Positions 13,501 to 54,880 of a stretch of DNA of 64,000 bases are shown one piece after another. The position numbers were made by a program, and so were the translations under genes. The stretch comes from Thermoanaerobaculia bacterium (GTDB lineage Bacteria > Acidobacteriota > Thermoanaerobaculia > Multivoradales > J023): contig DASWIG010000794.1 in assembly GCA_036397835.1 (NCBI GenBank), positions 9,698-73,697 on the forward strand, read 5' to 3'. The stretch's first letter is position 1. The number at the start of each line of letters is the position of its first letter. The notes under the pieces are model-generated. The model ran no database searches, was not told the DNA's origin, and was given only the letters and a program-made list of their open reading frames with translations.

Positions 13501-16500
13501 GTACCTTCGACGGCTTCTCGCGGCGTATTCTCCAGCAGGAACATCACCTGAAACAGCGGCGAGTGGGCGAGGCTTCGCTCCGGCTCCAGCTCTTCGACCA
13601 GCTTCTCGAAAGGCAGCTCCTGGTGAGCGTGCGCCTCCAGCGCGATCTCCCGCACCCGAGCCAACAACGAACGGAACGTCGGGTTCCCCGACAGGTCGGT
13701 GCGTAGCACCAGCGTATTGACGAAAAATCCGATCAGCCCTTCGATCTCCAGCCTGTTGCGTCCCGCGATCGGCGTTCCTACGCTGATGTCGTCCTGACTC
13801 GTGTAGCGCGCAAGAAGCGCTTGAAACGCTGCCAGCAGAGTCATGAACGGCGTCGCTCCCTCCTTGCGGCCGAGCACCAACAGCGCTGCGCTCAGATCCG
13901 CCGGCAGCACAAAAGTCCGGGTCGTCCCGCGGTGAGTCTGAACCGCCGGCCGCGGCCGATCGGCAGGCATCTGGAGCAGCGGCGGTGCACCCTTTAACCG
14001 CTTGCGCCAGTAGTCGAGCTGTGCCGCCAGCACCTCGCCGCGCAGCCAGCCGCGCTGCCAGGTCGCGTAGTCCGGGTACTGAATCTCCAGCTCCGGAAGG
14101 GGTGAAGGACGCCCCTCGACAAATGCTCCGTACAGGGTCGCCAGCTCCCGCATCAGGATTCCCAGGGACCAGCCGTCGCTCGCGATGTGGTGCAGCGTGA
14201 CCAGCATCGCATGATCCTCTTCCCCGAGCCTTAACAGGAGGGCCCGCCACACCGGTCCTCGAACCAGGTCGAAGGGCCGCTGTGCCTCGACCCGCGCCAA
14301 CCGCAGCATCAGATGGGAGCGCTGCCGGTCGGGAATCTGTTCCAGGTTCACGACCGGGAAAGGCACCGGCTCGGGGGGAGCCGTCACCTGGACCGGCTCG
14401 CCATCCACCGAGTGGTAGCTCGTGCACAGCACTTCGTGACGCCGCACCAACTCGCTGAGGCTCAGTTGAAGTGCTCTCCGCCGCAACGGACCCTCCAAGC
14501 GCAGCGCGGCGGGGACGTTATAGGCAGGATTGCCGGGCTCCAACTGATCCAGGAACCACATACGTTGTTGGGCAAACGAGAGGGGCAGTCCCTTTCTGCC
14601 GAGGGCGCCGTCCCTGGGAGCCGGCACCATGGGTGGTGGCCCCCAGCCCTCGGCGCTTTCCATCGCCCGGTTCACCCTCGCCGCCAGGCCGGCGATCGTC
14701 GGCGCCTCGAAGAGAGCGCGCAGCGGCAGCTCGATCCGGAAGGCTCGCACCACGCGGGAGAACATCTGGGTCGCCAGGAGCGAGTGGCCGCCGAGCTCGA
14801 AGAAGTTATCGTAGACGCCCAGCCCTTCGATTCCCAGCAGATCCGACCAGATCTCGGCGAGCAGCTCCTCACTCGGGCCCCGCGGCGCAACGAACGTGCC
14901 CCGCGGAGTCGAGAGCGCGTCCCCAGGAGGCGGCAATGCCCCCCGGTCCACCTTGCCGTTCGGCAAGCGGGGCAGCGACTTGAGCTCGATGAACAGCGAC
15001 GGCACCATGTAGTCCGGCAGTCGCTCGGCGAGAAAATGCCGCAGCTCGCCGCTGGCGGGAACGCCTTGCCCGGATGGCGTCACGTAGCCCACCAGCCGGA
15101 ACGAGATCGGTCCGCCGCCTCCTGCCTCCCGGAAGTCGCCCGGCCCCTCGTGGCGCGCCATCACCACCGCCTCTTCGATGCCGGGGTGTTGGGCCAGCGC
15201 CACCTCGACCTCCCCCGGCTCGATGCGGAAACCCCGCACCTTTAGCTGGTGATCGATCCGCCCCCAAAACTCCAGGTCGCCGTCCGGGCGCCAGCGCACC
15301 CGATCGCCCGTCCGGTAGAGACGTTCTCCCCGCTGCCCGCTGCAATCATCTGGCAGGAACTTCTCCGCCGTCATCGCCGGCCGCCGGAAGTAGCCGCGCG
15401 CCAGACCCGCCCCGCCGATGAGGAGCTCTCCGAGCGCTCCGATAGGCAGCGGCCGCCCACGTGCATCGAGCACATAAGCCCCGGTATTCGCGATCGGGCG
15501 CCCGATGGACACCGGGGTCCCCGTCTCCGCCGACACGCGGTCGACCAGAGACCATATCGTCGTCTCCGTGGGTCCGTACATGTTCCACAGCGACGCGCCC
15601 CGAGCCAGCAGCCGCCCGGCGAGCCCCGGCGTCAGCTCCTCGCCGCCGCAGAGGATCTTGAGCTGCGGCGAGCCCCGCCAGTCCGCCGCTTCCAGCATCC
15701 GCCAGGTCGCCGGCGTGGCCTGCATCATCGTCGTCTTCGAGGTCGCCAGGCGCCGCAGAAGCTGGCGGCCGTCGGCGGCCACCGTCCCGCCGACCAGCTC
15801 GACGCGGCCGCCCATGGCCAGCGGCAGGTAGAGCTCGAGCCCGGCGATGTCGAACGACAACGTGGTCACGGCGAGCAGCACGTCCCCTGCCGTGAATCCC
15901 GGCTGCAGGCTCATCGACCGCAAGAAGTTGACCAGCGCGCGGTGGGTGATCTGTACCCCTTTCGGGCGGCCGGTCGATCCGGACGTGTAGATCTGGTACG
16001 CCAGTTGCCCCGGTCTCACGGCGCGGCTCGGAGGCTCCACGCTTTCCCTCGCGATCTCCTCCCAGGCCGTGTCCAGGCACAGCCGAGGAGCGGTAGCGGC
16101 GGCCAACGCGGGGCGCCCGCTGCGCTCGATCACGCGCTCCTCGGTCAGAATCAAACCCACCCCAGCGTCTTCTTCGAGCAGCAACGCCAAGCGTTGGTCA
16201 GGATAGCCCGGATCCAGCGGCACGTAGAAGCCCCCCGCCTTGAGCACGGCTAGCAGAGCGACCACCATCGCCGGCGAGCGCTCCAGGCACACCGCCACCG
16301 CCACCTCGGGACCCACCGACCGGCGCCGCAGATGGTGCGCAAGCCGGCTCGAGCGCCGGTCAAGCTCGCGGTAGCTCACCTGCGCCTCGCCGCAGACCAC
16401 CGCCACCCGGTCGGACGTGGTCGCTGCAAGTGCGGCGAACCACTCTGGCAGCCAGGGCTCGCGACTCCCGCCCGAATCCGTGTCATTCCACTCCCTCAGC

Positions 16501-19500
16501 AACTGCGAACATTCCCCTGCTCCCAGCAGCTCGAGCTCGGAGAGCCGCCGCCGAGGTTGCGACACCACTCCCTGGAGCAGGTGCTTGAAGTGCTCCACTA
16601 GCCGCCCGATGGTGGTGGCGTCGAAGAGATCCGTGTTATATTCCACAGCCCCCCTGAGCCCTTCTTCGGCCTCCTCCATCAACACCGTCAGATCGAACTT
16701 CGCCGTCTCGGTCCCCACCTCCAACGGCTGAATCCGAAGTCTCGAAACCGCCAGACTCTCCGCCGGCGCATTTTGCACGGTGAACAGTGCCTGAAACAGG
16801 GGCGAGTGCGCCAAGTTCCGCTCCGGCTCGAGCGACTCCACCAGCTTCTCGAACGGGAGATCCTGGTGCGCGTGCGCCGCCAGCGACACCTCGCGCACCC
16901 GCGCCAGCAGGTCCCGGAACTCCGGATCGCCCCGTAAATCGACGCGCAGCACCAGGGTGTTGAGGAAAAAGCCGATTAACGCCTCGACCTCCACTCGGTT
17001 GCGTCCCGCGATCGGAGTCCCCACGCTGATGGCGTCCTGACCCGTGTAGCGGGACAAAAGGACCTGAAACGCCGCCAGCGAGGTCATGAACAGCGTCGCT
17101 CCCTCCCGGCGGCCGAGCGCCCCCAGCTCCGCGCTCAAGCCCGCCGGCAATGCGAACGGACGACTCGTGCCGCGGTAAGTCTGAACCGCCGGCCGCGGCC
17201 GGTCGGTGGGCAATTGAAGCAGCGCCGGCGACCCTTGCAATTGCCTTCGCCAGTAGGTGAGCTCCGTCTCCAAGGCCCCCTCGCGCAGCCAGCCCCGCTG
17301 CCATGCCGCAAAATCCGCGTACTGGATCCCCAGCTCCGGCAAGGGTGAAGGACGGCCCTCGACGAGCGCTCCGTACAGAGTCGCGATCTCCCGCGTCATG
17401 ATCCCTAGCGACCAGGCGTCGCTCGCGATGTGGTGCAGCGTCGCCAGCACCGCATGGGCCTGCGGCCCCAGACGCACCAGGGTCACCCGCAATATGGGGC
17501 CCCGGGCCAAATCGAACGGACGTAGCGCCTCGCCGCGCGCCAACCGGCCCAGCTCGCGGGAAACCGCCTCCTCCCCAAGCCCTCCCAGATCCACCACCGG
17601 CAACGCGACCTCCTCGGGAGCCGCGATCACCTGCACCACCTCGCCTCCCCGCGCGGAAAAGCTCGTGCGCAACACCTCGTGGCGACGCACCACTTCGCTG
17701 AGGCTGCGCCGCAACGCCGCCGCGTCCAACGGACCTTCCAGCCGCAGCGGCGTAGGAACGTTGTACGCCGGACTGTCGGGCTCGAGCTGAGCCATGAACC
17801 ACAGCCTCTCCTGGGCGAACGACAGTTGCAGAGCCTGGTCGCGAGAGACCGGCTCGAGCGGCGGGGCTTCCACCATCCGTCCCGCCCTCAGGCCTCGCTC
17901 GATCGTCGCCGACAGCCCCGCGACCGTCGGCTCCTCGAAGATCGTGTGCAACGGCAGCTCCAAGGCGAAGACCCGACGCAGCCGCGAGATTACCCGGGTG
18001 GCGAGCAGCGAGTGAGCCCCCAGATCCTCGAAGAAGTCGTCGTGGACGCCCACCTCCTCGCGGCCCAGGACCTCGGCATAGATCCCCGCCACCACCTCTT
18101 CCACGGGGCTGCGGGGAGCCGCAATCAGAGTCTCGTCGACGTTCTCGCCGGGCGCCGGCAAGACCTGTCGATCGACTTTACCGTTGGCGTTCAGGGGCAG
18201 CGCCGACAGCTCCACCACGGCGGCCGGAATCATGTACGCCGGCAAACGTGCCTTCAGGAACCCGCGCACTTCTTCGTGCGACAGCTCGGTCCCCGGCTCG
18301 GGCACCACATAGGCCACCAGACGCTTGTCCCCGGGCGTGTCCTCGCGCATCACCACCACTGACTCCCGCACCCCCGATGCGCCCCCCAGCACCGCTTCAA
18401 TCTCCCCCGGCTCAATGCGGAAACCGCGGACCTTCACCTGCTGGTCGATCCGGCCCACGAACTCGACTGCCCCGTCCGCCCTGTAGCGCGCCAGGTCCCC
18501 GCTCCGATACAGACGGGCCCCGGGCCGCGAGCTCCGAACATGGGGCGTGAAGACCGCCGCCGTCAGCCCCGGACGGTTGTTGTAACCGCGCGCCAGACCG
18601 TCGCCCCCGACGCACAGATGGCCGACCACCCCCACCGGCACCGGCCGGTCGCCGCGGTCGACCAGGTAAACCTTTGTATTGGCGATCGGACGCCCGATCG
18701 GCACCGTATGCGCCCCGCGACCGACCCGCCGCGGGCGGTGCCAGGTGGTGAACGTCGTGCTCTCCGTGGGACCGTACACGTGCAGCAGACGCCCCTGGAA
18801 ACCGCCCTTCCGTCCCTCTCCCTCGAGTACCGTCCGCACCTGCGTTGGATCCACCGCCTCCCCGCCGAAGAGCAGGTGCTCGAGCGACCGAAACGAGCCC
18901 CCCTCTTCCTGCGAGAGCTGGTTGAACAGCGCCGTGGTCAGAAACATCGCGCCGATCCGCCGTCGGCCGATCTCCTGCCTCAGCTTGCCCGCGGACAGCA
19001 CCTCGTCCTTGGCGAGACCCTCGAGCCGACCCCCGTTCAGCAGTGCACCCCAGATCTCGAAGGTCGCAGCATCGAACGAGGTGGTCGACGCCTGAGCCAC
19101 CCTGCTACCCGGGCCCAGGCGCAGGTAATCCGTGTTCCGCACCAGCCGTACCACCCCACGATGGGCGATTGCCACGCCTTTCGGACGTCCCGTCGAGCCG
19201 GAGGTGTAGGTCACGTACGCCAGACGATTCCCGCCACCCGGACTCCCAAGGCTCGTCTCGCACTCCTCAGCCATCGCCCGGCCAGACCCGCCCACGATCA
19301 CCACCTGGACCGCACGCAAAGGATGGTGCGCCGGCAGCTCTTCCAGCCGCGACTCCCGATGCGCGAGATCCGCTCGATCCCGGCTCGCCACCACGACGTC
19401 GATCCTGGTGTCGTCCAGCATGAACGCCACCCGCTCCGGCGGATAGGTCGGATCGATCGGCACATAGGCGCCGCCCGCTTTCAGGATCGCCAGGCTCGCG

Positions 19501-20525
19501 ACCACCATCTCCGCGCAGCGTTCCACGCACAGACCTACCGCCGACTCTCCATCTCCAGTCACCCCCAGTCGCCGCAGGCGGTGCCCAAGCTGGTTCGACC
19601 GGCGGTCCAGCTCGCGGTAGCTGAGCTGTTGCTCGCCGTACGCCGTCGCGATCGCCTCCGGACGCCTCGCTGCCTGCTGCTCGAACAGCTCGTGGAGACC
19701 CATTTCCCCGGGATAGTCCGTAGCCGTGTCGTTCCACTCTCCCCAGAGCTGCCACCGCTCCGCCGCGCTCAGCATCTCTATCTCCCTGAGCGCGACCCCC
19801 GGCTGCCCCAGGGCGCTTCCCAGCGCGGTGAGCACATGGCGTCCGAACCGCTCTATGGTCGACCGGTCGTACAGCTCCGCCGCGAAGCTCACCACCCCAC
19901 GCAGGCCCTCATCGAACCGCTCGAGACGCAGCGCCAGCTCGTGTCCCAACTCCGGCATCGACCCGTGAAGGCCCTCAAACGCCAGCGCAACCTGGAACAG
20001 CGGACACCCCTCGCTTCGCCCCTCCAGGCCCAGGTCGGTGAGCAGTCGAGCGAGGGGATAACGCTGCCGGGCGTAGGCCTCGAGCAAGGTCGTGCGGATC
20101 TGGAGCAGAAACTCCTGGAACGACCGACCCGGATCCACCACGTCGCGCAGGATGACCGCGTTCGGCGAGCCGGTAGCCCGCTCGCCATCGAGGCGAGGCG
20201 GGGTAGCGATGGTGACCGCCTGGCTCTCCGTGTAGCGGTGCAGCACCCACTTCAGCACCGCCATCAGCGTCGTCAGGATCAAGAAGGGCGAGTCGCGGGT
20301 CAGCTTCCGCAGGCGCTCCCAGAGCGCGCCGTCGATGTCGAGCGAGATTTCTCCGGCGCGCTCGCACCATCGCTTCTTGTGCGGGCGGTCGGGGCGCAGC
20401 CGCGCGATCTCCCGGTCTCCCGAAAACACCGCCAACCAGTAGTCCCGTTCCTCCAGGAGAGCGCGGTCGAGGACCACCAGGTCGGGCTTCTTCACGGGCT
20501 TGGAGGCTGTGATCACCTGTGCCAT
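10584..20525 (-). CDS. Non-ribosomal peptide synthetase, 3 modules plus thioesterase: (C-lobe remnant)-A-T-C-A(Gly)-T-C-A-T-TE
   Basis: Track ORF of 3313 aa. It has three A cores (LAYVTYTSGSTGRPKG, LAYQIYTSGSTGRPKG, PAYVIYTSGSTGNPKG), three T domains (GAHSL/GGHSL) and two full C domains (HHIASDAWS, HHIASDGWS). The TE carries GGWSVGG and GDHFSF. Confidence 0.95.
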   Translation of the reverse strand: MAQVITASKPVKKPDLVVLDRALLEERDYWLAVFSGDREIARLRPDRPHKKRWCERAGEISLDIDGALWERLRKLTRDSPFLILTTLMAVLKWVLHRYTESQAVTIATPPRLDGERATGSPNAVILRDVVDPGRSFQEFLLQIRTTLLEAYARQRYPLARLLTDLGLEGRSEGCPLFQVALAFEGLHGSMPELGHELALRLERFDEGLRGVVSFAAELYDRSTIERFGRHVLTALGSALGQPGVALREIEMLSAAERWQLWGEWNDTATDYPGEMGLHELFEQQAARRPEAIATAYGEQQLSYRELDRRSNQLGHRLRRLGVTGDGESAVGLCVERCAEMVVASLAILKAGGAYVPIDPTYPPERVAFMLDDTRIDVVVASRDRADLAHRESRLEELPAHHPLRAVQVVIVGGSGRAMAEECETSLGSPGGGNRLAYVTYTSGSTGRPKGVAIAHRGVVRLVRNTDYLRLGPGSRVAQASTTSFDAATFEIWGALLNGGRLEGLAKDEVLSAGKLRQEIGRRRIGAMFLTTALFNQLSQEEGGSFRSLEHLLFGGEAVDPTQVRTVLEGEGRKGGFQGRLLHVYGPTESTTFTTWHRPRRVGRGAHTVPIGRPIANTKVYLVDRGDRPVPVGVVGHLCVGGDGLARGYNNRPGLTAAVFTPHVRSSRPGARLYRSGDLARYRADGAVEFVGRIDQQVKVRGFRIEPGEIEAVLGGASGVRESVVVMREDTPGDKRLVAYVVPEPGTELSHEEVRGFLKARLPAYMIPAAVVELSALPLNANGKVDRQVLPAPGENVDETLIAAPRSPVEEVVAGIYAEVLGREEVGVHDDFFEDLGAHSLLATRVISRLRRVFALELPLHTIFEEPTVAGLSATIERGLRAGRMVEAPPLEPVSRDQALQLSFAQERLWFMAQLEPDSPAYNVPTPLRLEGPLDAAALRRSLSEVVRRHEVLRTSFSARGGEVVQVIAAPEEVALPVVDLGGLGEEAVSRELGRLARGEALRPFDLARGPILRVTLVRLGPQAHAVLATLHHIASDAWSLGIMTREIATLYGALVEGRPSPLPELGIQYADFAAWQRGWLREGALETELTYWRRQLQGSPALLQLPTDRPRPAVQTYRGTSRPFALPAGLSAELGALGRREGATLFMTSLAAFQVLLSRYTGQDAISVGTPIAGRNRVEVEALIGFFLNTLVLRVDLRGDPEFRDLLARVREVSLAAHAHQDLPFEKLVESLEPERNLAHSPLFQALFTVQNAPAESLAVSRLRIQPLEVGTETAKFDLTVLMEEAEEGLRGAVEYNTDLFDATTIGRLVEHFKHLLQGVVSQPRRRLSELELLGAGECSQLLREWNDTDSGGSREPWLPEWFAALAATTSDRVAVVCGEAQVSYRELDRRSSRLAHHLRRRSVGPEVAVAVCLERSPAMVVALLAVLKAGGFYVPLDPGYPDQRLALLLEEDAGVGLILTEERVIERSGRPALAAATAPRLCLDTAWEEIARESVEPPSRAVRPGQLAYQIYTSGSTGRPKGVQITHRALVNFLRSMSLQPGFTAGDVLLAVTTLSFDIAGLELYLPLAMGGRVELVGGTVAADGRQLLRRLATSKTTMMQATPATWRMLEAADWRGSPQLKILCGGEELTPGLAGRLLARGASLWNMYGPTETTIWSLVDRVSAETGTPVSIGRPIANTGAYVLDARGRPLPIGALGELLIGGAGLARGYFRRPAMTAEKFLPDDCSGQRGERLYRTGDRVRWRPDGDLEFWGRIDHQLKVRGFRIEPGEVEVALAQHPGIEEAVVMARHEGPGDFREAGGGGPISFRLVGYVTPSGQGVPASGELRHFLAERLPDYMVPSLFIELKSLPRLPNGKVDRGALPPPGDALSTPRGTFVAPRGPSEELLAEIWSDLLGIEGLGVYDNFFELGGHSLLATQMFSRVVRAFRIELPLRALFEAPTIAGLAARVNRAMESAEGWGPPPMVPAPRDGALGRKGLPLSFAQQRMWFLDQLEPGNPAYNVPAALRLEGPLRRRALQLSLSELVRRHEVLCTSYHSVDGEPVQVTAPPEPVPFPVVNLEQIPDRQRSHLMLRLARVEAQRPFDLVRGPVWRALLLRLGEEDHAMLVTLHHIASDGWSLGILMRELATLYGAFVEGRPSPLPELEIQYPDYATWQRGWLRGEVLAAQLDYWRKRLKGAPPLLQMPADRPRPAVQTHRGTTRTFVLPADLSAALLVLGRKEGATPFMTLLAAFQALLARYTSQDDISVGTPIAGRNRLEIEGLIGFFVNTLVLRTDLSGNPTFRSLLARVREIALEAHAHQELPFEKLVEELEPERSLAHSPLFQVMFLLENTPREAVEGTGLRISRLEAETMTANFDLTLAMTEEGEVLIGEVEYNTELFDSTTIQRFQGHLRSLLATVVSQPERHVFGLPLLAGAQRSQVVVEWNDTGKAYSRDRCIHELFEDQVARTPDQPAVEFGGARLTYRQLNERSNRLARHLQAVGAGPEVVVGICLERSLELVVGLFGILKSGAAYLPLDPSYPQERRAFMMHDAQASLLLTRRSLAKIRLPERVKVVLLSQDEATLRHESGESTLGRVGAENPAYVIYTSGSTGNPKGVLVAHGSLVNYIESRAEELALQPEDRMLQFASSSFDTSAEEIFSCLTRGARLVLRSESMPGSVAEFLRSCEELGLTVLDLPTAYWHEVTAALCTGCLGWPRCVRQVIIGGEAALPDRWAAWRNRVGREVRLFNTYGPTEATIVAIACELSRLSDPEAAGRAVPLGRAIANARVYPLDRELSAVPMGLAGELHIGGVPVARGYLHRPRLTAEKFIPDPIGDRPGGRLYKTGDLTRHRADGNLEFLGRVDDQVKVRGFRIELGEIAAVLGEHPAVREVEVLAPLDASGDRRLQAYLVTDSEVALSAGALDAALAGRLPDYMIPSVFVFLEALPRTPSGKLDRRALAGIKPEMAGGHGPTVAPRDALELKLVQIWEELLDTRPIGVTDDFFARGGHSLLAVRLMACLERRLGRALPVAALFQHSTVEALAAALRHETEPLAQSSLVALQPGGSATPFFCVHPVGGNVFCYVELARHLGPEQPFYALQALGLDGSQQPLSRVEEMAAHYLETIRGVQPQGPYLLGGWSVGGLIAFEMARQLQARGQEVGLLVLMDSRAQQPHDELEEGGDLEPLAIFALDLGLSLDRLALSAEELGRLSTDEKLALVLEEAKAAKKLPPEVGLPEARHLFRVFESTLIAEERYDPRPYPGQVYLFRARDGSGKETLSSDLGWGRYAQGGVTVEEISGDHFSFLQQPHVAQLAERLEVQIANRLGSNSRI
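10587..11410 (-). other. Thioesterase (TE) domain of the terminal NRPS
   Basis: 'PFFCVHPVGGNVFCY', the GxSxG motif 'GGWSVGG' (about 11150-11170), and 'ISGDHFSFLQ' at the C-terminus. Confidence 0.85.
14945..16490 (-). other. Adenylation domain, predicted Gly
   Basis: Specificity-lining residues read from SFDIAGLELY / MQATPATW / ILCGGEE / NMYGPTETTIWS give DILQLGMIWK. This is close to the classical Gly code DILQLGLIWK. Confidence 0.6.
19790..20525 (-). other. N-terminal remnant corresponding only to the C-terminal lobe of a condensation domain (about 245 aa, no HHxxxDG)
   Basis: The protein starts MAQVITASKPVKKPDLVVLDRALLEERDYWLAVFSG.. and runs straight into '..REIEMLSAAERWQLWGEWNDT' (the C-A linker). 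Motifs C1-C3 are absent. Confidence 0.6.
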
Positions 20526-20548: not shown

Positions 20549-23500
20549 TCAAAGCTCAAAATCGAACTCTTCGCTCTCGTCCTTCACGTCCGCCGAACTG
20601 GAACGACCCTCGGCCTCCCCACTTCCGAGCGGGATATCGAGGATGCGCCATTCTGGGTTGCCTCGGACTTCCTTCAGGATCGTCAGATAGTGCGCCAACA
20701 TCTGGGCGATGGTTGCCCGATCGAAAAGCTCGGTATCGTATTCCATGACTCCCGCGAGACCGCCTTCTATCTCGACCATGGAGAAGGCCAAGTCGAACCT
20801 CGAGGTTCCGCTATGGGCTTCCTCGACGGGTTCCAGGTGGAGGCCCGGCAGCTCCAGAGCCTCGGCCGCGACGTCCTGCAGACCGAAAGCCGCGCGAAAT
20901 ATCTGGGCGTCCTGCACGGTGCGGTCGGGCTGCAGCTCCTGAACCACCTTGTCGAAGGGCAGATCCTCGTAAGAATAGGCTTCGAAAGCCACCTCGCGAA
21001 CCCTCGAGATGAGCTCGCGGAAGCTCGGGTTTCCCGAAAGATCGGTGCGAAGCGCCAAGGTATTGACGAAAAAACCGATCAGGCCCTCGACCTCGCTCCG
21101 GTTGCGATTGGCGACGGCAGTTCCCACAACCAGGTCTTCTTGCCCGGTGTAGCGATAGAGCAGGGTATAGAACGACGCCAATAGAGTCGTGAACAGAGTC
21201 GTTCCCTCTTGCAGGCTCAACTGCCTGAGGCCCTCGGTCAGGGCCCTTGAAACGCCGGTGGGCTCTGCGCTGCCGCGCCACGATTTCACCACCGGACGGG
21301 GTCGGTCGGTCGGCAGCTTCAAGGTCGGCAACCCGCCAAGCTTCGTTTTCCAGTAAGCGAGCTGGCGTTCAAGGATCGCCCCACTGAGCCACCGGCGCTG
21401 CCAGACCGCGTAGTCCGCGTACTGAATCGGCAGCGGCGCAAGCTGCGGAGCCCGCCTTTCCACGAAGGCCCGGTAGAGCTCAGCCATCTCCCCGACGAAG
21501 ATGCCGTTCGACCAGCCGTCGGTGACAATGTGGTGCATGATCAAGAGCAGCACGTGCTCCTCGGTGTCGAGCCAAAGCAGAGTCGAGCGCAGCAGCGGAC
21601 CCTTCTCGAGGTCGAAAAGCCGCCGTGACTCGAGAATGGTCAGCCGCGACGTTTCCGACTGACGTGCAGCGGACGGCAGTTGCCGCAGATCGATCAGCGG
21701 TAGCTCGAGCTCGAGCTCCGCCGCAATCTGCTGAACTGGTCCGATATCCATCTCCGGAAACGTGGTACGCAAGGCCTCGTGGCGTGCGAAGACGCCGTTG
21801 AGGCTTCCTTTGAGAGCGGCGACGTGGAGCTGCCCCTTCAGGCGGACGGCGGTGGGCAGGTTGTAGATCGCCGCCTCCGGCGCCAGTTGATGGTGGAACC
21901 AAAGGCGCTGCTGTGCAAACGAGAGGGGCAGATCGCCATCACGTGGGGCCGGCTCGAGAGGGGGTGGTGCGCCCAAGGTGGGAGCCGCCTGCATCGCTTC
22001 CTCGACCCTGGCTGCAAGACCCGCCACCGTCGGGGCCTGAAAAACGGCGCGCAATGCCAACTCGACGCCGAAAGCTTGCTGTAGCCGGAAGATCACCTGG
22101 GTTGCCAACAAGGACTGGCCGCCGAGCTCGAAGAAGTTGTCATTCCTGCCCACCCGTTCCAGACCCAAGAGCTCGGTCCAGATTTCCGTCAGGATTTCTT
22201 CGCGTTCGTTGCGCGGGGCGACGAATTCGCTGCGAAGCTCGGGCCGCGAAGTGTCCGGGGCAGGCAAGGCGAGGCGATCGAGCTTGCCCTGGGGTGTCAG
22301 CGGAAAGGCGTCGAGAGGCACGAAGGTTGCGGGCACCATATGATCAGGCAGCCTGTCGGACAGGAACGACCGCAGGTCGGGGACAAGCCCATCGCGCACG
22401 GCCTCGGGCACCACGTAAGCCACGAGCCGTTTTTCGCCGGCCTGATCGGCGAGGGCCAGCACCACCGCCTCGCGCACCTCCGGGTGCTCGTTTAGCACGG
22501 CGCCGATCTCGCCGAGCTCGACGCGGAATCCGCGCAACTGGATCTGGTGATCGATGCGCCCCAGGAAATCGAGCTCGCCGTTGGCACGCCGGCGGGCCAG
22601 ATCGCCGGTGCGGTAGAGACGCGCGCCGGACTCTTCACTGAACGGATCTGGGACGAAGCGCTCGGCGGTCAGGGCCGGGCGACGAAGGTAGCCGCGGGCC
22701 AGGCCTGCTCCGGCGACGAAGATCTCTCCAGGCACGCCGATCGGTACCGGCTTCAGCCGGCGCTCGAGGAGGTAGATCCCGAGGTCGGAGAGCGCGACAC
22801 CGATCGGGCTGCTCCCGGCCTTTGCCGGGTCAGACCGGCTCAGGAGCCGGTAGGTGACGTGGACCGTCGTTTCGGTGATTCCGAACATGTTCACCATCTG
22901 CGGGCGCCGATCGCCGTGACGCCGAAACCACGGTGCCAGGATGGAAGGCTCCAGGGCCTCACCGCCGAAGATCACCAGGCGCAGAGGCAGCTCGGAAGAT
23001 CCCATGGCCCGCGTGGCCTGCTCCTCGATGACGACCAACTGACGAAAAGCCGACGGGGTCTGGTTGAGGACCGTGACCCTTTCCTGCACCAGCAGGGCGA
23101 GAAACTCCTCGGGAGCGCGGCGGCTGACATGGTAGGGCACCACCACCAACCGGCCGCCGTAAGCCAGAGCTCCCCACAGCTCCCAGACCGAGAAGTCGAA
23201 AGCGTAGGAGTGGAACAGAGTCCAGACGTCGCGGCCGTCGAATCGGAGATGGACCGAATCGGGAACGCGCTCGGCCGCCGCCAGCAGGCGGGTGACGTTC
23301 CTATGCGTCACCGCGGTCCCTTTGGGACGGCCGGTGGATCCTGAGGTGTAGATCACATAGGCTGCCTGATCCGAGTGCGGCCAGGTGCCGAGCTCGGAAG
23401 TAGGGCCGGCGCCGATCTGCGGCCAGTCACGATCCAGACAGAGCACCGGATGGCCCGCCACTCGATAGGCGGTAGGGACTCCTCCCATCTGTCGCTCGCA

Positions 23501-26500
23501 GGTCAGGAGGATCTCAGCCCCCGCGTCCTCCAGGGTAAAGGCCAGGCGCTCTGCGGGGTGCGACGGATCGAGCGGAAGGTAGGCGCTCCCCGCTTTGAGG
23601 ACGCCGAGGATCGCCACCACCATTTCCAACGAGCGGTCCAGCATCAGGGCGACGAGTCGCTCGGGGCCGGCACCCAGGGACCTTAGGAGACGGGCCAACC
23701 GCTCAGACCTGCGATCGAGCTCGCCATAGGTGAGCTGCAGCGTTCCCTGGTTGACCCCGACGGCCTCCGGGGTGCGCTCGACCTGAGCCGCGAACAGGGC
23801 CGGCAGGGAGGCGGCAGGGGCGTCGGTGCGCGCACCCCACTCCACCTGCAGTTGGCACCGCTGCGCCGATGTGAGCAGCGGCAGCTCGGTTATCCGCTGG
23901 CCGGGAGTCGAGCCCATCGCCCCGAGTAGGGCTTCGAAATGACCTTGCAAGCGGCCGACCGTGGTTCCGTCGAAAAGGTCGGTGTTGAACTCCAGACCGG
24001 CGGTGACGCCCTCCGGGGCCTCCCAAAGCGACAGCGTCAGGTCGAACTGCGTCGTTGCGTTGTCGATTTCCAGAGGGCTCATCGCCAGCCCGGGGATCTC
24101 CACAGCTCCCTGCGGCGCGTTCTGGAACACGAACATCACTTGGAAGAGCGGCGAGTAGGAAAGGTCGCGCTCCGGTTCCAGCTCCTCGACCAGCTTCTCG
24201 AACGGCAGGTCCTGGTGGGCGTAGCCCCCCAAGGTCGTCTCCCGCACCCGTCGAACGAGGGTGGAAAACTGGGGATCTCCCGCCAGATCGCTGCGGATGA
24301 CGAGGGTATTGACGAAAAAGCCGATCAGATCTTCGATCTCCCGTCGGTTGCGGCCCGCGATCGGCGTGCCGGTACTGACGTCGGTTTGGCCCGAGTAGCG
24401 GGAAAGCAGCACCTGAAACGCCGCCAACAGAGTCATGAATAGAGTCGCTCCCTCGCTGCGGGCGACCGCGCCCAAGAGCCCCCAAAGCTGTGCCGGGAGC
24501 TTGAAGAAGCGGACCTCCCCGCGGTAGCTCATCACCGCCGGCCGCGGCCGGTCAATGGGTAGCCGCAGGAGCGGTGGCGCACCCTCCAGCCGCTCGCGCC
24601 AATATGCGAGCTGAGCCTCCAGCGCCTCCTCCCGCAGCCAGCCGCGCTGCCAGACCGCGAAGTCCGCGTACTGGATCTCGAGCTCCGGCAGGGGAGAGGG
24701 CCGGCCGGCGATGAAAGCCGAGTAGAGGGTCGCAATCTCGCGGGTCAGCACTCCCATCGACCAGCCGTCGGAGACAATGTGGTGCATGTTGACGAGCAGG
24801 AGGTGCTCCGCAGGGGCGAGGCGAACCAGCGTCGTCCGCAGCAGCGGACCCATCACCAAGTCGAATGGATGGCGGACGTCCGCTGCCGCCAGCCGCAGCC
24901 CCTCGGCTTCGCGCGCCCGCGGGGGAAGCGTCGAGAGGTCCACCAGACTCAGATCCAGCGGCTCGGGTGGGTCGGCTTCTTGCACCGTCTCGCCGAGGAA
25001 CCAGGAAAAGCGGGTTCGCAGCACCTCGTGGCGGCGCACCACCTCGGAGAACGCTGCCGCGAGCACCAGGGGTTCCACCCTCCCCTTCGCCCGCAGGGAA
25101 ACCGGGATGTTGTACGCCGGGTTGTTCGGCTCCAACTGATCGAGGAACCACAGGCGCTGCTGAGCGAACGACAGCGGCAGCGGTTGATGCCGGGATACCC
25201 GGTTCATGGGGGGTAGCTCGAGCCCCTTCCCGGCATGCCGCAACGCCGAGACGGAGTCGGCCAAGTGCGCTACCGTCGGCTCCTCGAAGACTTCGTAGAG
25301 CGGGATCTCCACCGCGAAGACTTGACGCACCCGCGTGATCAACTGCGTCGCCAGCAGCGAATGCCCGCCGAGGTCGAAAAAATCGTCCTCGACACCCACC
25401 CGCTCGACGCCCAGAACTTCAGCCATGATCCCGGCTAGGAGCTCTTCCTCCGGCGTACGCGGGGCGACGTGCCCGGTTTCGTCGGCTGCGCTCTCAAAAT
25501 CCGGTAGGGCTTCGCGGTCCACCTTGCCGTTGGGGTTGAGCGGGAGCGCCTCGAGCCAGACAAAGGCCGACGGCACCATGTACTTGGGAAGAAAAGTCTC
25601 GAGCGCCGAGCGTAGCGTCTCGGCATCCTGGGAGGCTCCGGGCGCCGGGACCACATAGGCTACCAGCCGCTTTTCCCCGGACCGCTTCGACTCGGGGCCT
25701 TCCTCACGGACGACGACCACCGCTTCGCGCACTCCCGGCGCATTGCCCAGCGCCGCCTCGATTTCCCCCAGCTCGATGCGAAAACCCCGGACCTTGACCT
25801 GGTGATCGACTCGACCCACGAACTCGATCGCGCCGTCGGCGCGGGATCGCATCTTGTCTCCGGTCCGATAGAGGCGGTCACCGGGCCGCGAGCCGAATGG
25901 GTGAGGCGTGAAGACCTCCGCCGTCAACGCCGATCGGTTGTGGTATCCGCGGGCGAGACCGTCGCCGCCAATGCTCACCTGTCCCACCACTCCCAACGGC
26001 ACCGGCTCAACTCGGCGGTCGAGCACGTAGACCTCGGTGTTGGCGATCGGACGGCCGATCGGCACGGTGCGCGAATCCGAATTGACGTGCACGGTGCGGT
26101 GCCAGGTCGTGAAGGTGGTGCTTTCGGTGGGGCCGTAGACGTGAAGCAGCCGTAGCGGCGGGTCTCCTGCAAGCACCGCCCGCACCCGTGAGGGGTCGAC
26201 CGCCTCGCCCCCGAAAAGCAGATGTTCCTGCAAGGCGAAGGCGGCGTCATCCTCCTGTGACAGTTGATTGAACAGCGCCGTGGTGAGGAACATGGTGCTG
26301 ATCCGCTGTCGGCGGATCTCGGCCACCAGCTCGCCGGGGGCGAGGACCGCTTCCCTGGAGATCACCGCCAGCCGGGCACCGTGGAGCAGTGCCCCCCAGA
26401 TCTCGAAGGTGGCGGCGTCGAAGGAAGTGGTGGAGGCCTGGGCCACACCGTCCTCGGCCCCCAGGTGGATATAGTCGGTGTTCATCACCAGGCGGACCAC

Positions 26501-29500
26501 GCCTCGGTGGGGAATGGCCACTCCCTTGGGCGTTCCGGTCGAACCGGAAGTGTAGATCACGTAGGCCAGACGATCGCCGCCGGTCGCGATAGCCGGATTC
26601 TCTTCGCTCTTGCGCGCGATCGTCGCCCGGTCGCGGTCGATCAAGACCACCCGCACCGCGCGCCTTGGATGCTCCTGGGGAAGGATCGCGAGGAGGGACT
26701 CCTGCCCCACCACCACCTCCGCGCCCGAGTCCTCGAGCATGAAGGCGAGGCGCTCGGATGGATAGCCCGGATCGAGGGGAACGTAGGCGCCTCCCGCCTT
26801 CAGGATGGCGAGAAGAGCCACCGTCACCGCTGCGGATCGCTCCAGGAACAGGCCAATCCTAACCTCGGGAGCCACCTCCAACTGCCGGAGGTGATGGGCC
26901 AGACGGTTGGCTCGGCAATTGAGCTCGAGGTAGCTCAATTGCTCTGCGCCGAAGGCCACCGCGATCGCCTCAGGTGCGAGTTTCACCCGCTGCTCAAAGA
27001 GCTGATGGATGCCCAGCTCGGCCGGGTAGAGTGCAACGATGTCGTTCCACTCCCGGAGCAATTGCCCGCGCTCGCAGGCGGCCAAGAGCGGCAGGTGCGC
27101 AACGGGCTCCTCGGGCCTTTCGACGATTCCCTGCAGCAAGGTCTGGTAGTGCCGCAGCAGGCGAGTAATGGTGGTCGCATCGAAGAGATCACTACTGAAC
27201 TCGAACGCCGCCTGAATCTCTTTGGCCCCTTCAATCACTACGAGCGAGAGGTCGAAGGGCACCGCTCGGATCTCGAGCGAGAGCGGGCTCATCCTCAGAT
27301 CCGCAGTCGCCCACTGATCCTCCGGCGGCCGGTCGAGCACGAACGTCGCCTGGAATAGGGGCGAGTGGTAGAGGCTTCGCTCCGGCTCCAGCTCCACGAC
27401 CAGCTTCTCGAACGGCAGGTTCTGGTGGGAATGGGCATCGAGGGTCACCTCTCGAACCCGCGCCAGCAGGGTACGGGAATCCGGATCTCCGGACAGATCC
27501 GTGCGCATGACCAGGAGGTTCACGAACAATCCGAGCAGTCGCTCCACCTCCAGCCAGTTGCGACCCGCGAGCGCCGTCCCTACGCTGATGTCGTCCTGCC
27601 CCGAATAGCGGGCAAGCAGTGCTTGGTAGGCCGCCAGCAAAGTCATGAACAACGTCGCCTCCCCAGCCTGAGCCAACGCGTTGAGCGACTCCCACAACCT
27701 CGCCGACAGCCCGAGCGACCGGCGTGCGCCGCGATAGCTGCGCGTCATCGTCCGCGGTCGGTCGGTGGGGAGCTCCAAGAGCGGTGGGGCGCCAGCCAGC
27801 CGTTCTCGCCAGTAGGCGAGCTCGGCTTCGACCGTCTTTCCTCTAAGCCAGCGCCGTTGCCAGTGGGCGAAGTCGGCATACTGGATCGTCAGCTCCGGAA
27901 GCTGCGGAGCGCGACCGCGCAGAGCGGCCTCGTAGAGGATTGCCAGCTCGCGGTTCATCAGATTCTCCGACCAGCCGTCGAAAGCGACGTGATGAACCGC
28001 TCCCAGGATCACGTGGTCGGCGCCCCCGAGCCGCGTCACGAGGGTCCGCAGAACCGGACCACGAGCGAGGTCGAAGGGCCGGGACCACTCACGCCACGCC
28101 AGCCGCCGCACTTCGAGGGCGGCCCGAGGCTCCGGGAGCTCCTGGAGATCGACCAATGGCAGCGGCAGCGAGGCGGGCGGGGCGATCTCCTGCTTCGACG
28201 TTCCACCCCGCAACGGGAAGCTGGTGCGCAGCACTTCGTGCCGCTGCACCACCCGATCGAGGCTCGAAGACAGAGCTGCGATCGACAGCGGACCCTCGAA
28301 GCGCACGGCGATGGGCATGTTGTACGAGGGGCTGTCCGGCTCAAGCTGATGAAGGAACCACAGCCGTTCCTGGGCGAAGGAGAGGGGCAGTTGCCGGTCC
28401 CTGGCCACCGGCTCCAAGGCCGGCATCTCGGTGATTTGGGCGACCCGCATCGCCTCCTCGATCCGTGCCGCCAGAGCCGCCACGGTCTGCGCTTCGAACA
28501 GCGTCCGCAGCGGCACCTCCACGCGGAAGGACTGGCGCACCCGGGTCACGACCTTGGTCGCCAGCAGCGAGTGGCCGCCGAGCTCGAAGAAATTGTCGTG
28601 GAGACGGACCTGAGCGAGCCCGAGCACCTCCCTCCAGATCCTCGCCACGAGCTGCTCGACGGTCGTCGCGGGGACCGCCGGGTCGGCGATGAGGAAGGGC
28701 AAGGTCGGCGGGGCGTGGCGGGCCAGAGCTTTGCGGTCGACCTTCCCGTTGCGCGTCAGCGGCAAGGCGCCGAGGACGACGAAGACTGCCGGCACCATGT
28801 ACGCCGGCAAGGATCGTCGCAGGAAACGATGTAGCTCGCCAGGGGGGGGCTCGTGGCCACCGCGGGCGACGACATAGGCGACCAGTTGCTGTCCTCCGGA
28901 GCCATCGCTCCGGGCCACGACCACCGCACGCTCGACCGCCTCGTGGCGGCCGAGCGCCACCTCGATCTCGCCCAGCTCGATGCGGAAGCCCCGCACCTTG
29001 ACCTGGAAGTCGATGCGGCCCAGGAACACCAGGCTGCCGCCCGGGCGGGTGCGCGCCAGGTCGCCGGTGCGGTACAGACGCCCGCCCGCCGCTCCCCGGG
29101 CATGGGGCACGAAGACCCGGGCCGTGCGAGCCGGCTCGCGCCAGTAGCCTCGGCCGACGCCGATCCCGCCGACGCACAGCTCGCCTGGAACCCCAAGGGG
29201 CGTCGGAGTCAGACGGCGATCCAGCAACTCCAGGCGCAGGTTACGCAGCGGACGGCCGATGGAAATCTGTACGTCGCCGGCGTCCAGGTTGCGGATCACC
29301 TGATGGCTGACGTCGTCGGAACACTCGGTGGGGCCGTAAGCGTTGAGGAGCGGAATGTTCGGAAAGAGGCTAAGCCACCGGCGGGCGAGATCCTTCGGAA
29401 GGGACTCCCCGGTGGGAATCATCCAACGGAGAGCCGTGAGCCGTGGGCTCGACGGTCGCCGGTCCGCCACCTCCTCGAGGAGGAAGTGCAGTAGCGACGG

Positions 29501-32500
29501 CACGGTTTCGAAAACGGTCGCCCGGCTGCGATCGACCTCGGCGAGCATCCGTTCGGGATCGTGGGCTATCTCGTCAGAAACGACCTCCACGCGACCGCCG
29601 ACCAAGAGGACGGCCAGGAACTGCCAGATCGATATGTCGAAGCACTGGGAAGCGGTCTGAATCACCACGTCGTCGGCACCGAGATCGAGCTCCTCGACCT
29701 TGGCGCGGAGATGATTGACCATCCCGCGGAGAGTCACCATCGCACCTTTCGGCACTCCGGTCGATCCGGAGGTGTAGATCACATAGGCGAGCTGATCCCC
29801 AGAGCTCGGTATCGGGAGCTCTGCCCCTGACGGGTCCGAGAGGTCCTCGATCCGCAAGAGCCGTGGCCGCCGCATTTCGGGCAGCCTCGCGATGGCCTCG
29901 GCCACGATCGCTTCGAGCGGATCACCGACGAGCACCATGGGAGCTGCGCTGCGGTCGAGAATCTGACCGATTCGGGCGCTCGGATGGAGGGGATCGAGAG
30001 GAAGATAGGTGCCGCCGGCCTTGAAGATCGCGAGCATCGCCGCCAGCAGATCCACCCCTCGCTCGGCGAGGATCGCCACCACCGTCTCCCGGCCGGTCCC
30101 GAGGCAGGCGAGGGCCTGCGCCATTCGGCTTGCCCGCCGGTCGAGCGCGCCGTAGCTCAGCCACACCCCATCGCAGACCGCCGCCATCGCCTCCGGGCTG
30201 CGCTCCACCTGGACCTCGAGGAGGTGGGCGACGCTCTCCACCGGCGCCTCCGTCCGTGTGTCGCTCCACTCCACCAGCAACTGGTGCCGTTCGCCCGTCC
30301 CCAGAAACGCCAGCCGAGCAAGGCGCTCCTCAGCACGGTCCGTCACCGCCCGCAGCAGCAGCCGATAATGATGGATGAGCCGCTCGACGGTGGCGGCGTC
30401 GAAGAGATCGGTGCTGTACTCCATCATGCCGAAGATCCCGCCCTCATGGATCTCCATGAGCTCGACGGAAAGGTCGAACTTCGCCGTCGTGGTCGCGACC
30501 TCGATCGGGGTCATCGTCAGGCCCGGAATCGGCCAGGCCCACTGCGGCGCGTTCTGCAGCGAGAAAAGCACCTGGAACAGCGGCGTGTAGGAGAGGCTGC
30601 GCTCCGGCTCCAGCTCCTCGACCAGCTTCTCGAACGGCATGTCCTGGTGGGCGTAGGCCCCCAAGGTGATCTCCCGCACTCGTTCCACCAAGTCCAAGAA
30701 CCCCGGATCTCCGGAGAGGTCCGTACGCAGGACCAGGGTGTTGACGAAGAACCCGATCAGATCCTCGATCTCCAGCCGGTTGCGCCCCGCGATCGAGGTG
30801 CCGACGCTGACGTCGTCGCGTCCGGTGTAGCGACCGAGGAGGGTCTGAAACCCCGCCAGCAGAGTCATGAAGAGCGTCGCCCCCCGCTGGCGGCCAATAG
30901 CCTCGAGCGCCTGGCACTGGCTCTCCTCCAGCCGGAACGAGCGGATCGCACCGCGGAACGTCTGCCCGGCGGGCCGCGGCCGATCGCTGGGAAGCTCGAG
31001 CAGCGGCGGCGCACCGGAAAGCCGCTCCCGCCAATGGGCGATCTCGGCCGCGAGCACCTCACCGGAGAGCCACTGGCGCTGCCAGGCCGCGAAGTCCGCG
31101 TAGGCGACCGCGGGCGTCCGCAGGGGCGATGAGCTCCCGCCGTGGAAGGCGTGGTAGACGGCGGCAACCTGCTGGGTGAGGATTCCCATCGACCAGCCGT
31201 CGCTGACGATGTGGTGCATGGTCAGCATCAGAGCGTGATCCTGGTCCGCGAGCCGAATCAGGCTGGCTCGCAGCATCGGGCCGCAGGCGAGAGCGAATGG
31301 CCGCCCGGTCTCGGTCTGCACCAGGCGTCCGAGCACGCGGTCACGCACCTGCTCGCCGAGCCCGCCTAGATCCACCAGCGGCATCGGCACCAAAGCCGGC
31401 GGGGCGATCACCTGCAGCGGTTCCCCTCCCGGGGAAACGGCGAAGGTGGTGCGCAGCACCTCGTGGCGCCGTACGACCTCGTTGAGACTGCGCTCCAAGG
31501 TGACCAGCTCGAGCGGTCCCTCGATGCGAACCGCGAAGGGGACGTTGTAGAGCGGGCTGTCCGGCTCGAGCTGGTCGAGAAACCACAGCCGCTCCTGCGC
31601 GAACGACAGCGGCAGCCCCTTCGCGGCCCGGGCCTCGGGAGGCAACGGCTCCAGAGGCGGCGCCTCCCAGCCCCGGGCCGCCCTTAGCTCCCGCTCGCAC
31701 GTCGCAGCCAGATCCGCCACCGTCGGCTCCTCGAACAAGACCCGCAACGGCAGCTCGAGCGAGAAGGCCTGTCGCACCCGTGAGACGAGCCGAGTAGCCA
31801 TCAGCGAGTGGCCGCCCAGCTCGAAGAAGTCCTCGTGGATGCCCACCCGTTCGAGGCCAAAGACCTCGGCCCAGATCGACGCCAGGATTTCTTCGATGGG
31901 GGTGCGGGGCTCGTCGAGAGCCACATCGTTTTCCCTGAGCCGGTTCCAGTCCGGCACCGGCAACGCGTCCCGGTCGATCTTGCCGTGGTGCGTCAGCGGC
32001 AGATCATCGAGAATCACGAAGGCCGCAGGTACCATGTACTCCGGTAGCTTGTCGGCGAGAAACCTCTTGAGCTCGCGACCGTCAGTCAGATCGCCGTCGG
32101 CGGGCACGACGTAGGCCACCAGGCGTTTGTCGCCCAGCCCTTCCTGGCGCGCCAGCACCACGACTTTCTGCACCGCGGCGTGCTGGCTCAGCACCACCTC
32201 GATCTCTCGCAGCTCGATGCGGAAGCCGCGCACCTTGATTTGGGTATCGGCGCGCCCCAAGAACTCGAGCTCGCCGCCTGACAGCCAGCGCGCGTGATCG
32301 CCGGTCCGGTACAGACGCTCCCCGCCACACCGGCTGAGGGGACTGGGGACGAACGCTTCCGCTGTCGGTTTCGGCCGGTCCGCGTAACCGCGCGCAACGC
32401 CGCTGCCGGCTCCGTACAGCATGCCCGCCACCCCCATAGGCACCGGCTTCATCCGCCGGTCCAGCACGAAGACCTGGGTGTCGGCGATCGGCGGCCCGAT

Positions 32501-45290: not shown

Positions 45291-45503
45291 GCGGACTTCT
45301 GACGACCCTGGACATCAGACGGGAGGACTTTTGGAATGGCGCCGACGGCTCGGGAGCGAAGCTCCCATAGGCACCATCAGCGGGGAAAGACGGATGCCTG
45401 ACGGGCATGGCGATGACCGAATAGCAGGGTGGCCGCAACGTGCGTGCCAACGGGATGGCGTCACCGCCTTCACATGGCAAGATCACTGAAACGAGGAGAA
45501 TCG

Positions 45504-47918: not shown

Positions 47919-47924
47919 GAGACG

Positions 47925-48701: not shown

Positions 48702-48899
48702 GGCGCCAGAGTAGGTTCAAGGAGCGTACGTGTCAAGACGGGCTTACCCGGCGCCGTGGGAGCTTTTCGCCACCATCCTGAGTTCCCGAATCGAGCCCGA
48801 TTCGCTAAGCTCTTCAAGCGCAGCCGAGGAGGTGGCCTGTGCGGCAGTGAAGGCCGGGCCACCGCGCCAAGCCCGAGAATCCGAGCCCCGGAGGACGCC

Positions 48900-54775: not shown

Positions 54776-54880
54776 CTGTAGGCTCCCCGAGCGGATTGTA
54801 TCTCGCGCCTGGGGGGTTCGGCCAGCCAGGACGCTCGGTGAGGATAACCGGGACGAAGCACAGGATGTGAGGGTAGAGCG

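Follow-up and report, generated by a model that had tools for sequence, protein, structure and literature searches.

Introduction

Among the systems that order the subunits of non-ribosomal peptide synthetases (NRPSs), the beta-hairpin docking domain (betaHD)-SLiM pair is the one in which the donor has at its C-terminus a disordered stretch shorter than 15 residues, a short linear motif (SLiM), that binds a folded N-terminal element on the acceptor (Richter 2008; Hacker 2018; Kosol 2019; PMC9113145), and here one motif class may recruit several partners, with betaHDs also carried by some tailoring enzymes, e.g. halogenases (PMC9113145). In this article, I will discuss a C-terminal tail that occurs twice in a 64,000-nucleotide stretch of DNA from a Thermoanaerobaculia bacterium (GenBank assembly GCA_036397835.1, contig DASWIG010000794.1, positions 9,698 to 73,697 of the forward strand; the window, below, is this whole stretch), once on a four-module synthetase (NRPS-2) and once on a cobalamin (B12)-dependent radical S-adenosylmethionine (SAM) enzyme. 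I will argue that such [DE][DE]-x-F-x-[FL] tails are probably docking SLiMs of split modules, and that the condensation (C) domain ending NRPS-2 and the radical SAM enzyme would take turns on the module that opens the next synthetase (NRPS-3), in which an orphan C-terminal lobe of a C domain (half-C) precedes the adenylation (A) and carrier (T) domains.

Three further systems are close enough to matter. COM domains, which Hahn and Stachelhaus are said to have described in 2004, reportedly pair a helical donor that bears a TPSD motif and follows an E domain with an acceptor made by the N-terminus of a full C domain. At the X domain of glycopeptide NRPSs, the P450 enzymes are reported to bind by a folded surface rather than by a linear motif at their C-terminus. 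For the interface (I) domain of siderophore NRPSs, Reitz et al. reportedly proposed in 2019 that it positions a partner Asp/His beta-hydroxylase, such partners being Fe/alpha-ketoglutarate hydroxylases that are either fused or stand-alone, and to my knowledge neither a shared C-terminal tail motif nor docking of an upstream C domain has been described for it. The question has practical weight, since the module on which a stand-alone tailoring enzyme acts is among the features of NRPS clusters that are hardest to predict, and it is usually settled by experiment alone.

The two tails and the NRPS-2/NRPS-3 junction

The genes and domains on which the argument turns are these, with positions counted along the window.

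20549 to 35032, minus strand: NRPS-2 gene, 4827 aa; TubC_N, then C-A-T four times over, one further full C domain and the tail (Pfam and phmmer domain map)
22010 to 22195, minus strand: T domain of NRPS-2 module 4, aa 4280-4341 (phmmer domain map); it carries the donor when the peptide is condensed across the junction
20624 to 21931, minus strand: terminal full C domain of NRPS-2, aa 4368-4803, with an intact HHIVTDG at aa 4500
20552 to 20623, minus strand: linker and tail after that C domain, 24 aa, LGSGEAEGRSSSADVKDESEEFDFEL, with SEEFDFE at nt 20555-20575
10584 to 20525, minus strand: NRPS-3 gene, 3313 aa; half-C-A-T, C-A-T, C-A-T and TE
19686 to 20525, minus strand: half-C that opens NRPS-3, aa 1-280; an orphan C-lobe in which HHxxxDG is lacking
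17904 to 19685, minus strand: A and T domains that follow the half-C in NRPS-3 module 1, the latter (aa 811-874) presumably carrying the residue that the radical SAM enzyme modifies
3874 to 5877, plus strand: CysS-family cobalamin-dependent radical SAM enzyme, 667 aa; Pfam Radical_SAM above the cut-off, B12-binding weak and below it
5794 to 5874, plus strand: C-terminal extension of that enzyme, 27 aa (residues 641-667), predicted to be disordered, with SELFDFE at nt 5845-5865

Both tails, which an earlier note on this DNA had picked out from the sequence alone, re-read exactly: positions 20549-20700 of the minus strand give ...GRSSSADVKDESEEFDFEL and a stop codon, with NRPS-2 ending ...DESEEFDFEL, and positions 5780-5877 of the plus strand give ...PSSAESELFDFESAA and a stop codon, with the radical SAM enzyme ending ...AESELFDFESAA. 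The identities that the same note had given to the two proteins were borne out as well, the first by Pfam and phmmer matches (TubC_N, four C-A-T modules, a terminal C domain) and the second by a full-length match to CysS (PDB 9n1b, E 2.7e-160). A six-frame scan of the whole window for FDFE and related acidic F-x-F patterns returned no sites beyond these two, and about 0.045 tail pairs sharing at least six of seven residues are expected among the 23 open reading frame (ORF) tails of 20 aa each. Taken alone, the match in the window is suggestive, not decisive.

NRPS-3 starts 23 nt downstream of the end of NRPS-2, and its opening was correctly called a half-C: residues 21-260 match C-domain positions 185-444 only, which is the C-terminal lobe, a scan of residues 1-280 for H[HRQ]xxxD[GA] found none, and the domain falls outside the PF00668 definition of two CAT-like lobes with HHxxxDG in the N-lobe. 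In an AlphaFold2 (AF2) model built from a 15-sequence alignment, residues 1-15 are disordered and basic (KPVKKP) and are followed by a helix and then the C-lobe, residues 21-265 being confident with a mean predicted local distance difference test score (pLDDT) of 83.5. The conserved N-terminal signature of half-Cs, phi-phi-F-D-x-x-L-x-E-E-R-D-Y-W, begins with a phi-phi-F-D segment that is modelled at low confidence (pLDDT about 55). Foldseek placed the model with the C-lobe of NRPS C domains (Txo1/2 C-A, TycC, TomB), and the glycopeptide X domain (PDB 4tx3) was among the fold matches.

Hand-read from motif anchors with no predictor, the specificity code of the A domain in NRPS-3 module 1 is DAFFLGVTFK, which is of the aliphatic type and does not support the Gly-specific A domain that a match to LgrA module 2 had suggested. 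As a side observation, this A domain (18500-19000, minus strand) and that of NRPS-2 module 3 (26000-27000, minus strand) share an identical stretch around A5, LLHVYGPTESTTFTTWH, and probably the same substrate specificity, and of the two only NRPS-3 module 1 carries a half-C. Also of note is the preceding junction, where TubC_N occupies aa 5-52 of NRPS-2 (34877-35020, minus strand) and NRPS-1 ends ...SPIVEREVIEI before its stop codon (35029-35100, minus strand); this is a different docking system, and the assembly line therefore has two docking codes.

Conservation across loci

In other genomes the tail and the half-C travel together. Homologues of the terminal C domain that end just past the domain have tails such as ENEQFDFQ and AEAQFSFE, or, running straight into the stop codon, AEQFNL, ADQFVFDF, EDQFML, ADEFAF and EDQFAL. 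The conservation that the earlier note had asked about is thus found on the NRPS side, with [DE][DE]xFx[FL], a core of 5-7 residues, on 45 of the 51 terminal C domains in the non-redundant set. Of these 45, 41 have a half-C at the start of the next NRPS, one more reaches a half-C by way of a fusion of a radical SAM enzyme and a C domain, and three lie at a contig end; where the motif is lacking, a half-C is never next, a canonical NRPS follows in five cases and none is in view in one (Fisher p about 4e-6, on non-redundant counts). The loci come from two routes, and this colours how the numbers are read. Six terminal-C homologues with the motif were picked blind to the downstream gene, and all six (L001-L003, L059-L061) are followed by an NRPS whose N-terminus is a homologue of the window half-C, like ..FDxxLKEERDYW.., whereas the motif-less controls L062 and L063 (0/2) each have a downstream NRPS with a full C domain at its start. 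This small test matters because most loci were found through the half-C, by an alignment scan of one genome per species plus Joint Genome Institute (JGI) metagenomes that yielded a further 55, and many of them are related. The whole set of 60+ loci is mostly from soil Acidobacteriota; the 55 from the scan are likewise mostly Acidobacteriota (Pyrinomonadaceae, Blastocatellia), with Xanthobacteraceae, Holophagales and Gemmatimonadota also represented.

That the two window tails resemble one another by chance, as the earlier note had allowed for a 7-residue match, is the reading I most disfavour and find scarcely credible. The match is short, the pair was noticed after the fact, and about 0.045 such pairs are expected; however, analogous junctions with this class of motif number more than 40, about 30 trans-acting enzymes have it as well, no other occurrence lies in the six frames of the window, and 119 homologues of the radical SAM enzyme have no such tail. 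Chance is untenable because the same motif recurs in other loci.

Proteins with an N-terminal half-C are common, at about 23 of the top 150 by an eye count in a representative search that is dominated by the summed scores of giant NRPSs, while a word-indexed homologue search with the half-C gave one match. Against plasmids, tblastn with the half-C gave matches at about 30% identity only, which I read as internal C-lobes of the ordinary kind, and that search turned up no cluster that is annotated and characterised. A 251-aa protein lying between the C domain and the half-C in L001, considered as a half-C relative, proved unrelated. Covariation between the tail and the half-C N-terminus was looked at by eye, with too few independent junctions for a reading.

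Trans-acting enzymes at the junctions

The tail is not confined to synthetases. It is found on 16/22 CmlA-like proteins and on about 14/24 B12-radical SAM enzymes of all forms, against about 2/120 other ORFs, and the recurring gene order is a terminal C domain with its tail, then a CmlA-like or B12-radical SAM enzyme with its tail, then half-C-A-T (L002-L004, L007, L009, L014, L018, L022, L023, L028, L030, L031, L033, L039, L041, L045, L046, L050, L054, L058 and L059). In three of these loci a gene for a CmlA-like diiron beta-hydroxylase stands between the terminal-C and half-C genes, and all of the tails below run to the stop codon.

L002: terminal-C tail AEDQFAL; enzyme tail SDDYFRFN
L003: terminal-C tail TADEFAF; enzyme tail LEDEFVFD
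L059: terminal-C tail MEDQFML; enzyme tail MEDEFQFD

Tailed B12-radical SAM enzymes sit at the junctions of L014, L022, L028, L033, L041, L045, L046/48, L052 and L058, and by Pfam the B12-radical SAM enzymes at junctions come in three forms, alone (559 aa), with a half-C-like domain (about 800 aa) and with a C-like domain of full size (about 1200 aa). Most like the window is L028, in which a C domain with the tail ESEEFDFCA and a radical SAM enzyme with the tail ASEAFNF, both reaching the stop codon, are followed by half-C-A-T-C. The motif is carried by three unrelated scaffolds, the CmlA-like proteins, the CysS-like radical SAM enzymes and another B12-radical SAM family with or without C-like domains, and its F-x-F core and acidic positions are retained across phyla.

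One might suppose instead that the tail is some signal other than docking, such as a degradation tag or a localisation or chaperone-binding signal, and its acidic, disordered nature would fit, as would the ...SAA end of the window radical SAM enzyme, which bears a faint likeness to ssrA-type tags. I regard this as very improbable: the motif is restricted to proteins of half-C junctions, with the count of about 2/120 just given for the other NRPS subunits, transporters and enzymes of these clusters, and many tails stop exactly at F or L, unlike known degrons. For the same restriction, a beta-clamp-binding motif (QLxLF) and an ssrA-like degron were set aside as candidates.

The two tails within a junction are also alike. 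Over 20 junctions, setting each C-domain tail against the enzyme tail of its own junction gives 40 identities in seven variable positions, compared with 21 when the pairing is shuffled (p<5e-5), and BLOSUM scores behave likewise, as these pairs illustrate.

L009: terminal C SEPEFRF; enzyme PEPQFVFD
L041: terminal C HQFSFGH; enzyme EVFSFGK
L050: terminal C DTEAQFTF; enzyme DTEDQFVF
Window: terminal C ESEEFDFEL; enzyme ESELFDFES

Such likeness could also arise if the enzyme tails were non-functional scars, left when a tailoring gene, on its insertion, received a duplicate of the upstream gene's 3' end, and the usual position of the enzyme genes, exactly at the junction, would suit that history. 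I hold it to be highly unlikely, for the same codon is used at 39/77 identical tail residues, close to a rough expectation for two-codon amino acids, and at 3/7 in the window (where Ser is AGC in one tail and TCA in the other), the window radical SAM gene has the motif although it lies about 14.7 kb away on the opposite strand, and a scar would hardly explain three unrelated enzyme scaffolds or acidic and F-x-F positions kept across phyla. The likeness lies in amino acids and not in codons, and it therefore reflects selection on the protein and not a scar of DNA duplication; selection on two tails that track one another is what a shared receptor predicts.

Several other proteins at these junctions deserve mention in their own right. 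Fusions of a B12-radical SAM enzyme with a C-like or half-C-like domain, past which the F-x-F tail follows, occur at L014:6102-9746, L029:4595-8260, L046:1728-5198, L033:6567-8963 and L022:5298-10004, that of L029 being apparently the sole source of a C domain for its junction. PhyH-type dioxygenases of 287-290 aa are encoded just before half-C genes at L005:9098-9961, L006:8764-9630 and L032:5912-6784, and end in a conserved ..DYxDPDFCPVLW.. and not in F-x-F. Directly upstream of a half-C NRPS gene, S46-family peptidase genes are found at L046:5316-7427, L047:50-2323, L048:7707-9980 and L053:334-2406, these loci being related soil metagenome clusters.

The radical SAM enzyme of the window

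The window enzyme has the architecture expected of the CysS/TokK type, namely an N-terminal cobalamin-binding Rossmann domain, a CxxxCxxC core in which C195, C199 and C202 are invariant, the C-terminal domain of the family and full-length similarity (residues 1-640 for the CysS match, and E 3.9e-67 for TokK). Its AF2 model (pLDDT 90) is confident to about residue 640 and drops below 50 over residues 655-667, which hold the motif, in keeping with the disorder that the earlier note had guessed for this tail. CysS binds its pantetheine-linked substrate in a channel, the native linkage being a thioester, and methylates it there (PMC12846815). CysS has 630 aa and stops at the catalytic core, whereas the window enzyme has 27 extra residues with the motif, and while the substrate of CysS is an alkoxy-aminobenzoate, that of the window enzyme is probably an aliphatic aminoacyl thioester.

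None of the closest 119 homologues, which share 45-53% identity with it and come from Streptomyces, Haliangiales, Longimicrobium and, in many cases, metagenomes, ends in F-[DE]-F or a looser form of the motif; they stop a few residues past a conserved ...NIxPxW or have unrelated extensions. Three of these tail-less homologues whose neighbourhoods were read (P0004, P0007 and P0019) lie beside canonical NRPSs that start with a full C domain, with no half-C and no F-x-F tail in view nearby.

The family holds other arrangements of interest. Seven CysS-family enzymes, several from Streptomyces (P0050, P0054, P0069, P0073, P0076, P0080 and P0086), have a conserved extension of their own, ..EKG[LI]xAH[VA][AE]I before the stop codon, which may be a docking tail of another kind, meant for another partner, and P0111 (726 aa) has a carrier (PP-binding) domain fused at its C-terminus, another way to join enzyme and tethered substrate. 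In the window, two genes directly upstream of the radical SAM gene (1372-2583 and 2580-3326, both on the minus strand) encode, one of them, a CdhD-like protein (corrinoid/Fe-S protein delta-subunit family) with two 4Fe-4S ferredoxin motifs and, the other, a class I SAM methyltransferase, and the pair may be dedicated to cobalamin handling or reductive activation of the radical SAM enzyme.

A model for the split module

The earlier note had proposed that both tails may dock on the same partner surface, for example the half-C at the start of the terminal NRPS, so delivering the radical SAM enzyme to a carrier-bound intermediate there, and this interpretation is supported by strong comparative evidence, i.e. 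the association of motif and half-C, the tailed and otherwise unrelated trans-acting enzymes, the covariation of the tails and the thioester-bound substrates of the CysS family (PMC12846815), from all of which I infer physical binding. The model would define a type of split module in which a catalytic C domain ends the upstream protein, with the motif past a disordered linker of about 20-25 residues, and the downstream protein opens with a dead half-C fused to A-T. The A domain of NRPS-3 module 1 would place an aliphatic amino acid on its own T domain, the radical SAM enzyme, held there by its SELFDFE tail, would methylate this pantetheine-tethered residue, and the terminal C domain of NRPS-2, held by SEEFDFE, would join the upstream peptide to it, the two proteins alternating on one low-affinity site. 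The chemistry is likely C-methylation by a radical route, on a T-bound residue of the Val/Ile/Leu type that has yet to be condensed, because the hand-read code is aliphatic. As for the half-C, it is presumably a dead structural lobe retained on the A domain, on which it may pack as C-lobes do in C-A didomains, because the model superposes on the Txo C-A structures; splitting off the catalytic C domain would leave the carrier domain of the module open to other enzymes. At the site itself the alternating aromatics might form a short added beta-strand or place two Phe in a hydrophobic groove, and either the basic N-terminus of the half-C (KPVKKP) or its phi-phi-F-D segment could take part.

In this model the half-C, rather than the A or T domain, would be the receptor, and the choice has a rival in which the tails are docking motifs for something else, whether the A or T domain, an MbtH-like protein, or, in a daisy chain, the enzyme and the C domain themselves. 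The association seen is after all with the whole half-C-A-T module, and half-Cs are also found on starter modules where no tailed partner is seen. Yet nothing is unusual about the A and T domains, only the half-C separates the motif junctions from the five motif-less ones, and the likeness of tails within a junction suits one shared site better than two; an obligatory daisy chain is ruled out by six junctions that keep the C-domain tail with no enzyme gene between the NRPS genes (L010, L013, L015, L024, L026 and L047). A receptor other than the half-C thus seems unlikely to me, although of the alternatives it is the one that most deserves attention.

Several points weigh against alternating docking on the half-C. 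Most loci were found via the half-C and come from Acidobacteriota, so that their ascertainment is biased and they are not phylogenetically independent. Nor is the tail obligatory, since 6/22 CmlA-like proteins and several radical SAM enzymes at half-C junctions are without it (L006, L029, L032, L051 and L060). Half-Cs also head starter modules with no upstream C domain (L016, L020, L025, L040 and L044) and therefore have a role beyond docking. The window radical SAM enzyme has no close orthologue in the databases, its nearest relatives being those at 45-53% identity, and its gene lies at the distance and on the strand given above, whereas elsewhere such genes are mostly between two NRPS genes. 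Finally, tails that share one site would compete, and turnover needs some ordering of the two.

Even with these reservations, docking of both tails on the half-C module remains the reading I think probable, and it invites a wider one that I offer tentatively, as possible though short of probable: an orphan C-lobe before A-T may be a general docking hub that the upstream C domain and tailoring enzymes address via [DE][DE]xFx[FL], in which case the flanking residues, specific to each junction, would serve as its address. The enzymes bearing such a code so far are diiron beta-hydroxylases and several B12-radical SAM architectures.

If true, the tail code would tell from sequence which module a trans-acting enzyme modifies and so improve structure prediction, here a C-methylated aliphatic residue at the fifth position added after NRPS-1 (NRPS-3 module 1). 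It would account for modules that are split between C and A with a half-C left over, and would provide a small portable tag by which a hydroxylase or a radical SAM methylase could be sent to a module of choice. Beside the COM, betaHD-SLiM and helical-bundle types it would place a docking class in which a subunit and trans-acting enzymes share a site.

Other genes of the cluster

The window also contains features that lie outside this argument. A polyketide synthase (PKS) module is split into FAAL-ACP-KS, ending in the KS-AT linker (51158-55270, minus strand), and AT-DH-ACP (41297-43840, minus strand), encoded by separate genes about 7 kb apart, and between them on the other strand (45429-50846, plus) lie a MacB/FtsX-type permease gene and a second radical SAM gene (47961-50846) whose product has no F-x-F tail. 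NRPS-1 (35029-41277, minus strand) has a nitroreductase-like oxidase domain at aa 1875-2047, which suggests a thiazole or oxazole, and its first module consists of C and T domains between which an A domain is represented by no more than a fragment of about 60 aa. A gene of the MerB-like alkylmercury lyase family (7237-7908, minus strand), odd for an NRPS cluster, stands beside a major facilitator superfamily (MFS) transporter gene (5928-7211).

Comparison with known systems

No description of a docking pair between a C-domain tail and a half-C, or of one using an enzyme tail, was found in the literature searched, and the 2021 review of docking domains (PMC9113145) includes no such class. With the betaHD-SLiM pair the window shares a short, disordered C-terminal donor motif, and the likeness stops at the acceptor: TubC_N (PF18563) is, by Pfam, absent from NRPS-3 and present in NRPS-2, and in place of a betaHD (alpha-beta-beta-alpha-alpha) there is an orphan C-lobe. 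The betaHD-type donor motif follows a carrier protein, whereas here it follows a C domain and is of the acidic F-x-F kind, and where the enzymes of that system bear the folded domain, here it is the SLiM that the trans-acting enzymes bear.

The COM pair likewise shares an acidic C-terminal donor and an N-terminal acceptor that order subunits at a junction of the C family. However, the last domain of NRPS-2 is a C domain (HHIVTDG) that lines up over its whole length with those of the modules, with no TPSD in that domain or its tail, and NRPS-3 starts with C positions 185-444 only; tails that do look COM-like (..DFPESGLSQKDFESL..) were seen in the control locus L063, with no half-C after them. 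Judged by sequence features, the junction would be a case of SLiM-mediated docking that is neither a betaHD-SLiM nor a COM pair.

Turning to platforms for trans-acting enzymes, the X domain of glycopeptide NRPSs, which receives the P450 Oxy enzymes (Haslinger 2015), is likewise a dead C-superfamily domain that lacks the catalytic His motif and serves as a landing platform for enzymes working in trans on carrier-bound substrates. It is nonetheless a full, two-lobed domain placed between T and TE in the last module, whereas the half-C is a C-lobe only, at a subunit N-terminus and before an A domain, and the X domain is not known to dock a neighbouring NRPS subunit as well. The conceptually nearest precedent is the I domain, a C-superfamily domain of non-canonical type that adjoins the A domain of a hydroxylated module; half-C-A-T also follows hydroxylase genes in many loci, but these encode CmlA-like diiron or PhyH-type enzymes, and the half-C could be related to the I domain, the two being compared by description only. 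What sets the half-C apart from both X and I domains is that it is a single lobe at the N-terminus of a subunit, that it is seemingly addressed by a motif, and that it seemingly serves the neighbouring NRPS subunit as well.

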